The notes beneath the pieces are model-generated. The model was not told where the DNA came from, ran no database searches, and saw only the letters and a program-made list of their open reading frames with translations. A DNA stretch of 63,444 bases, filler included, from Rhabdomonas costata (lineage: Eukaryota), in assembly GCA_019059605.1 (NCBI GenBank). It is 39 parts of 39 records of this genome, joined end to end, with 100 filler letters (N's around TTAATTAATTAA, not from the genome) between each part and the next. Parts side by side here need not be neighbours in the genome. Positions count along the whole stretch, not along the records: positions 45,633 to 47,160 come from JAHMHO010013734.1; 38 more parts are not named here. The stretch is one strand, 5' to 3'. How positions within the stretch are numbered: the stretch's first letter is position 1; every line of letters starts with the position of its first letter. This document shows positions 44,304 to 52,044 of the stretch, one piece after another. A program made the position numbers and the translations under genes.

Positions 44304-45369
44304 GTTCAGCGGCTGTGCAGTGGGCTGCGCAAGCGGTTTCCCACGCTTGAAATCTCCGTTTTAACCTTCTACAAGGCCCAATCCCTTGAGCTGCAAAAGC
44401 GGCTGGACACCAGCCTTAAGGTGGGCGTCCTCACTGGTACGCCTGCGCTCGTGGGGCTACTTAATTTTTGGGTCGGCTAGTTTTGCACGAGGGGATTTTG
44501 TTTAACTTCTGCTTTTCAAACAGTTTTGTACATGGTTGTAGACTGATCGTTGAGGTGCTCTTGTTCCTGTGGCCGCGGGTGTTGGCTTGTTTGGCATCAT
44601 ATTTTCGCTCCCACACACGTAGTGGATGCCTGTCAGGGGAGCGAGTTCGACATCGTCGTGATCAGCTGTGTGCGAAGCAACCGCGAGCAGCGCATTGGTG
44701 TGCGGCACTCTAGTTTTGCTTCCTGGACCTACTCTTTCGCTTACTTAATATGATAGGTGCCCAATCGTCATGCGTTTGTTTAAAATTGAAACATCTCCCG
44801 TGTGTTCTGTGTGGTTGGGTGTGGGGACTTGGGTTGTTCAAGATTTTTCGGAGTAAGGAAGGAGAGGGGGGGCAACACTGGACTCCCCCGACAACCGCAA
44901 AGTTGCCCCCTCCCCCAGTTTACCAATGTACCACCTCATGGAAAGTGAAAAATGTACTGCTGTATCGGGTGAGCAGCTGTCCCATCTCTGAGCATTCAAC
45001 ACTACACTGCATTACGTTACGTTACGTTACATTCCATTCCATTCCATTTCATTCCATTCCATGCCATTTATGGTTGTGCCATTGGAAGGTGGGAGTGGCC
45101 GTTTTTGAACCCCTCTCACTTGGGCTTTGGTGTAAACATTTACATCGAAGAGTGTCTCTTCCTGACTTCACGTCCTCCCTGTTTTTTCTTGCCCCTCAAC
45201 AGGTTTCTTGAAGGACTCGAGAAGGCTGTGCGTGGCTATTTCTCGGGCGAAGGAGTTGCTTGTAATCGTCGGAAATCCAAGCAGCTTGGGGTGCGATCCA
45301 GATTGGCAGTACATCGTCCAGCACGTACGCTGCATCACTCCGCGCCTTCTCGTTACTCTTCCCAAATGA
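44304..45369 (+). CDS. Upf1/DNA2/NAM7-like SF1 helicase, C-terminal RecA domain (last 3 exons)
   Basis: Exons 44304-44436, 44623-44697 and 45203-45369 encode ISVLTFYKAQ...VLTVDACQGSEFDIVVISCVRSN...IGFLKDSRRLCVAISRAKELLVIVGN...*. Confidence 0.93.
44997..45068. repeat. Compound pentanucleotide repeat, (CGTTA)n grading into (CATTC)n, within an intron
   Basis: cactacactgcattacgttacgttacgttacattccattccattccatttcattccattccatgcc. Confidence 0.85.
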
Positions 45370-45964
45370 AAGCTCGACCTATGGAAGCGCATCTGTTTAG
45401 CAAGCAATGTTTGAATGGCTCCTTTTTTCGCATGACCCGTGTGCATCCCTGCCACTGCATCGGTTGCAGAACTGGCGCTTCCCGGCGGGGCACTTAACAA
45501 CAGCCAAACACACATGAACTTGAACACCCACANNNNNNNNNNNNNNNNNNNNNNNNNNNNNNNNNNNNNNNNNNNNTTAATTAATTAANNNNNNNNNNNN
45601 NNNNNNNNNNNNNNNNNNNNNNNNNNNNNNNNGGTTTGTGGGCATAGGGGGACGAAATCGAAATTCACTAGCGCACAATGGAAAGTCATGTGCTAGAAGG
45701 AATTTCCGAGGGGGCAAAATTTCTTAGAATGAAGAGCACTTTGAAGAACATTTCAGAATTATTTGCCCTCTTTTTTTACCATGGAGAGGATTCTTCTAAA
45801 CTGAGTTTTGTCGTATACCTTACATCTTGCCTATAGGATGAACAAAAACGGCACCAGAAGCTGACTTTCACCCACTTTTTCTGTCGTGGTTGCTCTTTCG
45901 TCTCACTCAAGCGTGCACGCGAGGAGAGAAGAAAAACTAAAAGCACAACATCAGTGAAACAAAC

Positions 45965-46981
45965 CTCGAAGCCAAGATACTTCGCCAGATTCGCTCGCAT
46001 CACCGTGTTGTGCAAGACCAGAGCCTCCTCGAACTCCTTGCCGTAGATGTTCCACAGTCGGGTGCTGTCCTGGATATCTGTGAACTGAAAGAAGAAGAGT
46101 AAAAAGAAGCGGAAGCAAATAAGCCAAAAGAGAACACGTTTCCGAAGTGAAGCAAACCGAAAAAAAAAAGCCTGGAACAAACATTCTCAGTAAAGTGACG
46201 GAAAGCCAACACCCACAAAGCACAACGCAGGGGTGGCGGGAAGTCTTAACACCATCAGTGCGGCGTAGCCCATCGGCGCTGACTTCAGCCGTTGCTGTAG
46301 GGCCCGACTGCGGCGGTAGCTTGTGAAGCCTACCACCCCCAGAATTGCCATCGCCCCAACAACAAAAATCGGCACCAAAATCTCCACCATCCTCATCGTA
46401 CTCCCCGAGTCCGTCGTCCCCACCACAGGATCGGGCTCGTACCGCTGCTTCAGACTGCGTACCAGTGGCGCCGTGCCGTCCGTGTCCACACACCGCATCT
46501 CCCCCACCTTCGCAACAACCTGCTCCATGATCGTGCTCTGGATCGGGGAGAACCCCAGTCCCATCGCCACTGCCTGCGTAGACGATGCGAAGGTAAACAG
46601 GAAGTACCGCTGAAGCCAGTACGCCTTCTCGCATCCCATGCTGGACATCCGCAGGATGAAGTACTCGTACCCCGAGATGGGGTAGGCTGGGTGGGGGGCA
46701 TTGACGATCTGCGCCGAGAAGTCTTCCTCCAAGGGAAACGCCAGCGCGGCCTGGATGGTGGTGTTCTCGTTCAGGACTTGGACTTCGCCCTGGGGGCCCA
46801 CAAACTGCGCCGGGGGGAGGCTCAGCCCAAGCGCCGTGTCGTAGCCCACGTATCCCAAGCTGTACGGCGTCCAGAGCACGGAAACCGCGAGTTGGGAGCT
46901 TCCGGTGATGGGGCAAAGCATGCCGTTGGTATTGGGCCAAGACACACCCGTACCCACAGCACTCCACCCGGAGTCGAACGC
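45965..46981 (-). CDS. Receptor-type adenylate cyclase: PstS-like extracellular domain, one TM helix, start of class III cyclase domain (partial, 2 exons)
   Basis: Exon 46981-46253 encodes W..VGTGVSWP...TPYSLGYVGY...IVNAPHPAYPISGYEYF (PstS motifs), TM ILVPIFVVGAMAILGVVGF, then RRSR...SAPMGYAALM. Exon 46084-45965 encodes FTDIQDSTRLWN...ALVLHNTVMRANL...GFE. The phase-0 GT-AG splice gives ALMFTDIQDSTRLW. Confidence 0.88.
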
Positions 46982-47588
46982 CTGCACAAAGCCAGACAAC
47001 AAGTCAGAAAGAAGAACTGTGCGAACAGAGCTGAGAAAGTGGAGGTAGTAACATCCCCACCTGCAAGGCATTGGTGAACACTGAGGTCGTGCCACTGGAG
47101 TCCTTCCGCACAAAGCGCCTGATCGAAACATTGGGAAGGAGCCCACCCAGCGCGGGGTTCNNNNNNNNNNNNNNNNNNNNNNNNNNNNNNNNNNNNNNNN
47201 NNNNTTAATTAATTAANNNNNNNNNNNNNNNNNNNNNNNNNNNNNNNNNNNNNNNNNNNNTTTTTGTAAATTATGTTGTAGGTGTGGGTGGTTTTAAAAA
47301 AATTATGCTGTAGGTGCTGTGTTCAACCCTCCGCTGAGTAGATCAAGAAGCGGCGCAAAAGGGATACAGAAGAGCCGGGCCCAGGGCCGGGCGAGGGTGA
47401 AAGGAGGAATGTGCTGTGTATACTGTATAAAAGACCCCAGGCCTGCTTTGGCTCAGCCTTGTTTGTCTCATATACCAACAGCTGTAACTACAGCTGTATG
47501 TGTCTGCGTGCGTGGCTGTGTGAGCCAGCGCTGAAGCTGCACAAGTCTTGCTTCTTCTCTGTTGTTAGCCGCGGCCGCCCAAGTGTAG

Positions 47589-49449: not shown

Positions 49450-51551
49450 GTACCCAGCTCCCCTGCGAGCCCTTTCACATCGACCGGTGCCTGCCTCCAG
49501 CCGCTCCACTCCACTCCACCCCCGTCCGCTCATCTCTGCACTCCTTCCTTGGGGGGCTGGGGCATTTTCTCGGGGGAACGACCCTTTGAGCTTTTCTTTC
49601 GGATGGGTGAACGGGCAGCACAGGTATCTACAGGCGTTGCCGTGCCAGCACATCACTCTATAGTTGCGTTGCGGGCTACTTCTGCCCTCTTCCGCTGAAC
49701 CTCCTGTACTTCGGTGTCGGGTGTGCGTGTGTGTGTGTGTGTGTGTGCGTGCCCATCAACCCTCTTGTGGGAAGGCCAGCAAGCTGCACAAGTCGATGAG
49801 CACGTCCTCAGCCGCCGCGGCCGGGGAGCACCTCCGCGAAAGCCCGCGCAGGGACGCAGCGATGGTCTGCAGAATCCAAATTCCATGCAATTCACCGCAG
49901 CCCCACAAGAAATCCAATCGCAACGCTCGGCAAAAATGCCCGTGGTCATGTCGTGCGAGCTCTGCGTAGGTGTCGTGAGATACTGAAAGAAACCCCAAGG
50001 TCTGAAAGAATTTCCCTCACACGTTTGTGAGCTTTTTGATGCCATCCATGTCACTGACTGATAAACTGAAAGGCTCAATAGACTAGCCCATGGCAAAAAC
50101 CACATCACAGCACGACAGAACAGCACCTTCAGGCGGTAGTCGGTGTCACTCTGCCCCTCGGCGCCGGAGTCGAAGCTGTCACTAGGCCCTCCAGCAGACA
50201 AGAGCTCCTGCACCCTCCTTGCCGTCGTCTTCAGCTCAGACGACACAACCAGCTCTGAGCCTGGAGCTTGTGAGGGGCCTGAAGCCCACCAGAAGATGCC
50301 ACTTGCAAGCACCGTTGAAGAATAAAGTCAAGGGTGTATCGAGTAAGTTAGAGAGATTGGAAACAATCGATCCGACTTAAAAAGGAATAGTAGAAGCACT
50401 GCTGTGACCAAACCCCNNNNNNNNNNNNNNNNNNNNNNNNNNNNNNNNNNNNNNNNNNNNTTAATTAATTAANNNNNNNNNNNNNNNNNNNNNNNNNNNN
50501 NNNNNNNNNNNNNNNNGGTGGGTTGGGTATTTAGCTTAGGATTAGGGTTGGGGGAAGAAACGTCACAACCGTTGTTACGACTTTCGGGAGTTGATAAACC
50601 GTTTTTAGTGCCCAGAAATCCTGTCAAAACGTCAAAATCATGGGAAATGGGGGGAGTACGGAATGTGCCCTTGAGTCCACCAACTGACGTCTTCAACCAC
50701 AGGCAATGCATTCCTTTTTGCAGACATACCCACAGCGTTTTCAGCCCCAGGCGCAGATGAAGAAGACGGCCTCCGGTGCGAGTGCCCATGCTGCGGGTTT
50801 GCCGAGGCAAACGTGTAAAGCGGGGGCGCTACGAGACGGGTCTCGGGCCGTCTCGGGTCATTAAACCGAACAAAGCTGCGAAGCAAAGGAACCTAAATCA
50901 AGCCGGAAGGGCATGGGCTTCGCACAGAAGGAGCAGAAAAAAGTAACCCCCCACAGGCAACCAAGAACACACCGAGAACATCACCAACGCCAAGAACATC
51001 AGTCCTCCTCCCTTCTACAATGTATATTCTGCACGCACCGCCTCAGCGCACCACACAGTGTCTTTTTACGTCCCTTTCCTCTCGCTGTACCTCACAGTAT
51101 ATGTTCCCCAGATTCCCGTCTATTGTTTCTGATCTTACTACAAATTACCACCGATTTCCTTCAAAGATGTGATTGATGGAGACCGTTTGAACTTACGCGA
51201 CAGACTTCTGTTGGAATTGTCACAATTTTATCTTTCTCAGGGTTCCGGGTGTTACTGGGCGACCTCAGTCTTGGGAAATCCGCCTTCTGCAGCGCCTTCT
51301 AACCTTGCACGATCCTAATTTGCAGGCCCACACAAATACAAACACACTAATTACAAGGCGATGGGAGCTGTTGTATCGGGGACAGGGGTGGGGAGCAAAA
51401 TACTGTCCCAATCGACTCGCAACTCCTAAAACGTTTGACGGCGTTGAAGCTCAACGTTGAACGCCCCCCCCCCCAATACAACACGCAACAGAGCAACACG
51501 GCAATACTCTACCTGTGATCTGCGATAACAAAAACACGCGACGCGACATAC

Positions 51552-52044
51552 GTTAAAAACTCATGGGCGTCCACAGACCCCGACTTGTCGAGGTCGATGC
51601 GGGGGAAAATTTCCTGGACTTGTTGGTGGGAAAAGGGATACCGCATGTCCTGACAAAGCCGGTACAACTCACCAGGACTCAACTTACCTGAGCGACAAAA
51701 GAAAAACATACCAGCAGATCACCCGAAGCCATCAGGTACAGCTGGTTGATGGAACAGCCCCAGCAACCTCGACAAGCGACAACGACAAAACAACTCCGGA
51801 TGGGCAAGGTAAAAATAGAAGACGCAAGGTCAAGCCAAACTTGACCTTGAACTTGACCGACAGCAAATAAACCCCACTTAAAGCACATCGCACGTACAGA
51901 TACCGACTCAACACCTATAAAAAGCCGCGAAAAAAATATGTACACTCACCGTCTTGATTTTCGTCATACTGGTGAAACTGCATCATGAACTGCTCGTAGT
52001 CAATCTGGCTCATCCCGTATAGAATGTCCGGCTTCGGACGCTTG
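51552..52044 (-). CDS. Calmodulin-like EF-hand protein (partial, 2 exons)
   Basis: Exons 52044-51950 and 51687-51552 encode QFHQYDENQDGKLSPGELYRLC...IFPRIDLDKSGSVDAHEFL, two canonical EF-hand loops. Confidence 0.9.

Follow-up and report, generated by a model that had tools for sequence, protein, structure and literature searches.

The analysed window is a stretch of 63,444 nt from Rhabdomonas costata and consists of unlinked contigs of about 1.53 kb strung together by N-linkers; adjoining contigs are not genomic neighbours. One of these contigs carries the middle of an intron-containing gene on its minus strand, and since the window is built of unlinked contigs, this gene is truncated at both ends. 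The features are as follows.

45633–47160, no strand: stand-alone contig, 1528 nt between assembly linkers
47061–47160, minus strand: exon A, 5' end lost at the contig edge, frame from 47159, 33 aa of a PstS-type domain
47085–47108, minus strand: RKDSSGTT, second-lobe phosphate contacts equivalent to R135, D137, S139, G140 and T141 of E. coli PstS, 5/5 kept
46982–47060, minus strand: intron 1, 79 nt, GT-AG, skipped in read run X4
46253–46981, minus strand: exon B, 729 nt, 243 aa, with the remaining PstS-type domain, a stalk, the membrane helix, a basic segment and the first cyclase strand
46508–46960, minus strand: PstS-matching part of exon B, TIGR00975 positions 162–310 of 315, E=1.7e-11, 43.7 bits
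46490–46633, minus strand: cysteine pair, codons at 46633 and 46492
46325–46381, minus strand: predicted single transmembrane helix, 19 aa, mean Kyte-Doolittle hydropathy 2.65, the sole segment above 1.7
46283–46324, minus strand: basic segment, predicted to be cytosolic, 5 K/R
46085–46252, minus strand: intron 2, 168 nt, GT-AG, phase 0, skipped in X4 record 29
45965–46084, minus strand: exon C, 40 aa, beginning of a class III cyclase domain, including the first metal-binding Asp (FTD)
45633–45964, minus strand: intron 3, GT at its start, cut by the contig end, holding a high-copy repeat of about 60 nt

Joined together, exons A, B and C read as one open frame, 316 residues long, in which GC3 is 0.76–0.80. 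Introns 1 and 2 have pyrimidine-rich 3' ends, and a further GT follows exon C. The first-pass annotation of this DNA had described PstS motifs, a 19-aa helix, a basic segment and the stretch FTDIQDSTRLW...GFE, all of which were found on the minus strand where it had placed them. It had also joined 46253 to 46084 in frame, and this splice holds: it is a phase 0 GT-AG intron, it is skipped by an X4 contig, and the resulting peptide is colinear with proteins of the euglenid Entosiphon sulcatum. A donor at 46254/46253 was rejected for intron 2, as it gives a frameshift; the correct donor is the GT at 46252.

Read assemblies were available from four runs of one study (X1–X4), which are possibly the source of the genome assembly. 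X4 record 29 skips exactly the 168 nt of intron 2, while runs X1–X3 cover the introns and do not show this skip; X4 record 30 joins exon A to exon B, skipping exactly 79 nt. The X4 depth over the introns is little or none (most bins are zero), the repeat in intron 3 excepted. Because of this pattern of intron skipping and depth, we read X4 as RNA, the kind of run being unrecorded. Record 29 extends from 46579, where the PstS-like domain ends, across the helix and exon C into 304 nt that are absent from the contig, and the first two bases beyond exon C fit the expected Val. No X4 contig spans 46580–46756, where the genomic exon is continuous. Since the spliced peptide is colinear with the Entosiphon proteins from the first to the last residue, both splices are independently confirmed.

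The first-pass annotation had assigned the ectodomain to the PstS type from motifs in one exon, exon B. The type was borne out by the match of exon B to the PstS profile TIGR00975 and by matches of the family profile in PDB. Its description of exon B stands as well, but it had missed the upstream exon A, which holds the actual phosphate-contact motif. Exon A matches TIGR00975 at positions 121–151 of 315 (E=1.7e-4, 20.8 bits), so that both ectodomain exons match this profile and do so in order. With Pfam, exon B alone yielded no family at E≤1 and exon C alone no cyclase match; exon A alone gave PBP_like_2 at E=0.06. A PDB search with exon B found residues 160–306 of E. coli PstS (E=0.022), and one with exon A alone had no matches. 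With the family profile, all 30 PDB matches at E≤1e-5 were phosphate-binding/DING or cyclase-domain proteins. The sequence profiles point to a two-lobed type II fold as the predicted structure of the ectodomain. The curated TIGR00975 cut-off of 205 bits lies above both the exons in the window, which are a fragment, and the full-length Entosiphon relatives (182–199 bits).

The motifs TPYSLGYV and NAPHPAYPISGYEY of exon B are structural and are not phosphate contacts. The contacts lie in exon A, whose motif R-x-D-x-S-G-T aligns with R135-A-D137-G-S139-G140-T141 of E. coli PstS. The first-lobe contacts of that protein are T10, F11, S38 and D56; the contig carries the second-lobe set only, and these four positions are known from relatives. 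In the available text of PMC5381212, the contacts R125/S129/G130/T131 of Clostridium perfringens PBP-1 have the same spacing as in RKDSSGTT.

The cysteine pair is conserved in cyclase-fused relatives and likely forms a disulfide that would tie the end of the domain to the stalk. The stalk motif C-x-D...SLK-x-RYEP is conserved between the R. costata gene and its relatives, 37 residues separate the last cysteine from the helix, and two N-glycosylation sequons precede the helix. The search for a single membrane helix returned one hydrophobic 19-mer with a basic flank, as the first-pass annotation had described. Among the 15 residues after the helix there are five K/R and no D/E. Basic residues flank a membrane helix on its cytosolic side (the positive-inside rule), and because the basic segment follows the helix, the predicted topology is N-out, C-in.

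The distance from the helix to FTD is 24 residues. Exon C reads FTDIQDSTRLW...GFE and ends just short of the expected V-K-x-x-G-D. The claim that this is the start of a trypanosome-like class III cyclase fits its best PDB matches, GRESAG4.1 and GRESAG4.3 (E=0.065 and 0.08, weak values for 40 residues), and its colinearity with the Entosiphon proteins; it shares 43% of its residues with Entosiphon P0091 (E=7e-9 in the pairwise comparison), the cyclase domain of which aligns to GRESAG4.3 with E=1.3e-26. Of the five cyclase positions checked, the first Asp is on the contig and intact, and the other four lie off the contig.

The closest complete relatives are four Entosiphon proteins of 702–751 aa (P0002, P0089, P0090 and P0091). 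The spliced peptide is 34–39% identical to them, with scores of 158–176 bits, whereas the best of 50 shuffles reached 29.3 bits; this difference and the TIGR00975 E-value of exon B place the similarity beyond chance. The four were the only ones among the 38 matches of that search with both Pfam domains, PBP_like_2 and Guanylate_cyc. Full-length euglenid relatives have a signal-like N-terminus, a PstS domain, one helix and a complete class III adenylate cyclase, and in relatives the TIGR00975 match covers positions 1–314 of 315. The adenine-type set FTD, K-x-x-G-D, DYFG and N-x-x-x-R is present in all six complete proteins (the four from Entosiphon, Acrasis kona P0015 and the JGI protein P0057). 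One more Entosiphon protein, P0004 (453 aa), is a paralog without a cyclase.

The ligand positions were compared in these ectodomains. All five from Entosiphon, including P0004, keep T/S10, S38, R135, S139, G140 and T141. The motif RKDSSGTT of exon A recurs in P0090 and P0091. Position F11 is Leu in the Entosiphon relatives; at D56, Glu stands in 5/5 Entosiphon ectodomains and also in P0021 and Naegleria P0005, while D137 has become Gly in three of the five from Entosiphon. Among 30 eukaryote-type domains in which the second-lobe site is covered, R/S/G/T is kept in 21 and lost in nine, so the fold is often retained without the ligand site.

A search of 1.84 billion representative proteins with exon B found 84 matches. 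All were scanned for domains: 62 had PBP_like_2, eight a protein kinase, seven 7tm_3, four Ephrin_rec_like and three Guanylate_cyc, from which it follows that the PstS-type domain is a common eukaryotic receptor ectodomain. P0021 and P0041 have a cyclase start motif after a helix. Beyond euglenids, the PstS-cyclase pairing occurs in A. kona KAL0486379.1 (Heterolobosea) and in metagenome proteins; ESM Atlas holds clusters with both domains that have 102 members (score 0.98) and 84 members (score 0.78), and one JGI record is already titled 'ABC-type phosphate transport system substrate-binding protein/class 3 adenylate cyclase'. Database proteins with PBP_like_2 and Guanylate_cyc have the same domain order and spacing, these being automatic annotations only. 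The architecture is therefore less unique than the first-pass annotation implied: Heterolobosea, metagenomes and further euglenids have it too, and kinases and 7TM domains carry this ectodomain as well. Nothing that the annotation had named as refuting its reading was observed. The locus is a real spliced fragment of a widespread, although uncharacterised, protist receptor design.

Two word-indexed searches, one of longer proteins with exon B and one with alignment A3 of proteins of 1316–3755 aa only, had no match, which is a weak negative in both cases. Viral contigs searched with P0091 and metagenome contigs searched with exon B gave no confirmed locus, both searches being sensitive to close relatives only.

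Several outputs other than a cyclase were seen behind PstS-type ectodomains (P0003, P0016, P0033, P0039 and P0010): a TRP-like membrane domain with four ectodomain copies (Chromosphaera), a 7tm_3 receptor with three copies (Clastostelium), Cys-rich repeats (Palpitomonas), a kinase-like domain in a tardigrade, and a chytrid protein. The ENA fragment P0041 has the same stalk, helix and cyclase start as the R. costata gene; it reads through at the site of intron 2, and its similarity stops at the place of intron 3, after G-Y-E. This suggests that intron 3 is shared and that intron 2 was gained or lost.

The tree was built on 201 columns. Its starting set of 140 domains was reduced to 116 by removing near-duplicate proteins and rows less than 70% filled; a manual cut of 25 rows from the bacterial side left 91. 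In the resulting tree, whose bootstrap had not settled, R. costata grouped with Entosiphon and one ENA fragment (97/88) within a looser group with Naegleria and Acrasis (92/87), and a group of 53 rows had 87/79, with three 7TM-linked domains lying among bacterial-type rows. The tree supports a euglenid host and a putative inheritance within Discoba. With 87/79 support and the stray 7TM-linked domains, it does not settle a single origin of eukaryotic PstS-type ectodomains. A recent bacterial transfer into R. costata was also considered; since its closest relatives are euglenid proteins, this reading is disfavoured.

There are several paralogs per species, five in Entosiphon and at least one more in R. 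costata. The end of an X4 contig differs from 46614–46643 at six of 30 nt, all silently, and thus suggests that a paralog is expressed. At 46614–46692, at least one paralog is evident from contig ends of each of the four runs; the X4 paralog piece encodes an identical SMGCEKAYW, and its depth is above that of the contig's copy. A second haplotype or near-copy has eight coding differences, three silent and five missense, none of them in the phosphate motif. Within 46915–47038, three of the missense differences fall in one ectodomain loop, residues 47–56, one of them removing the unpaired Cys56, and intron 1 has several differences. These read-assembly differences show no sign of purifying selection (3/8 silent vs 24% expected at random).

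Trypanosomatid receptor cyclases (ESAG4/GRESAG4; catalytic domains 1FX2 and 1FX4) are similar to the R. costata family in having an ectodomain, a single helix and one class III cyclase. Their Venus-flytrap domains have a type I fold. As described in the accessible parts of PMC6027212 and PMC10470820, there are one or two, usually two, such ANP-receptor-like domains per protein, whereas the R. costata family has a single PBP_like_2/PstS domain with a recognisable phosphate site and groups with euglenid proteins. Bacterial PstS (the binding protein of the PstSCAB importer; E. coli 1IXH; PBP_like_2) shares profile positions 121–310 and the second-lobe contacts. PstS is a free or lipid-anchored importer subunit. 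Unlike it, the R. costata gene is split by introns, continues in frame from the PstS-type domain into a helix and a cyclase, and has sequons and the cysteine pair, while in its relatives the TIGR00975 score stays below the cut-off and Glu replaces Asp56.

The cyclase-kinases of amoebozoans and giant viruses also connect a receptor domain outside the cell through one helix to a class III cyclase. In the text available for PMC4053784, PMC4758236, PMC5804921 and PMC5203793 their cyclase is flanked by two kinases, and receptor cyclase-kinases number 67 in Acanthamoeba (PMC4053784) and 43 in Physarum (PMC4758236). In contrast, FTD here follows the helix by 24 residues with no kinase between, and full-length relatives have no kinase Pfam match; the text available on the cyclase-kinases does not name their ectodomain type. 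The cyclases listed for the Euglena genome in the available portion of PMC6366073 are of the BLUF, HAMP and Cache kinds, with no mention of the PstS-helix-cyclase type. In bacterial signalling, PstS appears in the available part of PMC8050422 only as a separate partner of a chemoreceptor; a survey of amoebozoan GPCRs has PBP_like_2 in its domain key (PMC10445921, in part), and excerpts of PMC7719234 and PMC3727952 provide general precedent for PBP-type receptors. The R. costata family works like a trypanosomatid receptor cyclase but does not have the ectodomain of one, and it is not a PstS by score or by context.

What the protein does can be proposed from its sequence. We give about an even chance to a single-pass receptor, likely dimeric, that would bind inorganic phosphate outside the cell and change cAMP output. 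The ectodomain is predicted to lie outside and the class III cyclase inside. Phosphate would close the two-lobed PstS-type domain, the disulfide-tied SLK-x-RYEP stalk would convey this closure to the helix, and the dimer's two cyclase domains would be re-oriented, as proposed for trypanosome receptor cyclases; phosphate might switch the cyclase either on or off. In trypanosome receptor cyclases, dimerisation of the catalytic domains is required according to the available text of PMC6027212; dimer-dependent catalysis is expected of class III cyclases, this family included. Control by the ectodomain has been proposed for these enzymes, whose ligands are given as unknown in the accessible sections of PMC6027212 and PMC10470820. 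The splicing, the identity of the PstS profile, the retained R-D-S-G-T, the intact cyclases of the relatives and the tree all support phosphate sensing as the predicted role. The Glu found in relatives at the selectivity residue D56, the Gly at D137 in three of the five Entosiphon ectodomains, the loss of the R/S/G/T set in nine of 30 eukaryote-type domains, the cyclase-less paralog P0004 and the coding differences that bear no sign of purifying selection would argue against it.

The same substitution at D56 speaks for the reading that the protein is a ligand-regulated receptor cyclase for another oxyanion or for a phosphorylated small molecule (an ester, a phosphonate or polyphosphate), perhaps a prey or food cue. 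In PstS proteins this Asp sets anion selectivity (PMC5381212, in the available text); the presence of several paralogs per species and the variation of loop 47–56 between haplotypes would also fit such a ligand. Yet all remaining contacts are those of PstS, and Glu retains the carboxylate and is seen in six of 85 other alignment rows (unlabelled, mostly of PstS length). We consider a ligand other than phosphate rather unlikely.

The ectodomain might instead hold at most a fixed structural phosphate, or be a dimerisation spacer, with the cyclase responding to pH, to osmotic or proteolytic stress, or to control exerted in the cytosol. Trypanosome receptor cyclases respond to acid, osmotic and proteolytic stress, the known activators in the accessible parts of PMC6027212 and PMC10470820, and the 37-residue stretch before the helix may be loose. 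PstS can have a nanomolar Kd (PMC8050422, in part), and because of this a PstS-type domain could be saturated in most waters. However, the second-lobe contacts are conserved despite the low overall identity with Entosiphon, and the conserved stalk motif fits a coupling role, so that we regard a passive ectodomain as unlikely.

Distinctly improbable is a dead or truncated cyclase acting as a regulatory partner, or a surface phosphate scavenger feeding a transporter. Just 49 cyclase residues are visible on the contig, and P0004 exemplifies a paralog without a cyclase; against this, the first catalytic Asp is intact, the transcript-like contig continues well past exon C, and 6/6 complete PstS-cyclase relatives are catalytically intact. 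That the fusion is an assembly artefact, a wrong splice call or a bacterial contig is hardly credible, since the very fragmented assembly, of which the read runs may be the source, is countered by two canonical introns both skipped in X4, by a peptide that stays colinear over the two joints with proteins of independent origin (Entosiphon, Acrasis and metagenomes), and by the absence of 80% coverage of the fused relative P0091 in any of the 168 matching plasmid records or 88 matching phage records, in which the rows shown are stand-alone PstS-region matches.

To our knowledge, a dedicated receptor for external phosphate has not been established in microbial eukaryotes. According to the available text of PMC6027212 and PMC7719234, no ligands are known for the receptor-type adenylate cyclases of protists, and no characterisation of a PstS-helix-cyclase protein was found in the open-access literature searched. 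The family is best described as a variant among receptor-type adenylate cyclases whose ligand can be predicted, phosphate sensing being the predicted function. One testable protein thereby ties the question of the cyclase ligands to that of an external-phosphate receptor: its ligand site can be recognised, its output is readily measured, and Entosiphon supplies complete natural copies. The value of the R. costata locus itself is lowered by its being a fragment and by the presence of the domain pairing in databases. If the phosphate-cAMP response is true, the family would serve as a model of flytrap control over single-pass cyclases, and its design could be taken up directly for a phosphate biosensor. 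Tentatively, and with somewhat less than even confidence, we propose that an old Discoba family (euglenids and Heterolobosea) may form a direct eukaryotic cell-surface receptor for external phosphate that acts on cAMP within a single polypeptide, which would be the first receptor cyclase with a ligand readable from sequence, and that the clade-wide change from Asp to Glu might retune a transporter's tightly binding protein into a sensor.

Within the contig 45633–47160 no internal repeats were found, and Rfam gave one match only, at chance level (E=0.76). In intron 3, a stretch of about 60 nt (45875–45935) reaches a summed contig depth of up to 13,000, compared with about 10–50 elsewhere, and because of this depth we take it to be a very high-copy genomic repeat; it could form a hairpin and has no second copy in the window and no Rfam match. 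Two unlinked contigs of the window also carry coding pieces. The adjoining one has two exon-like pieces on the plus strand (44547–45366) that match the C-terminal domain of Upf1-like helicases (AAA_12, E=1e-7 and 9e-9), and another has an exon with an EF-hand pair on the minus strand (51512–51718, E=1.4e-8).
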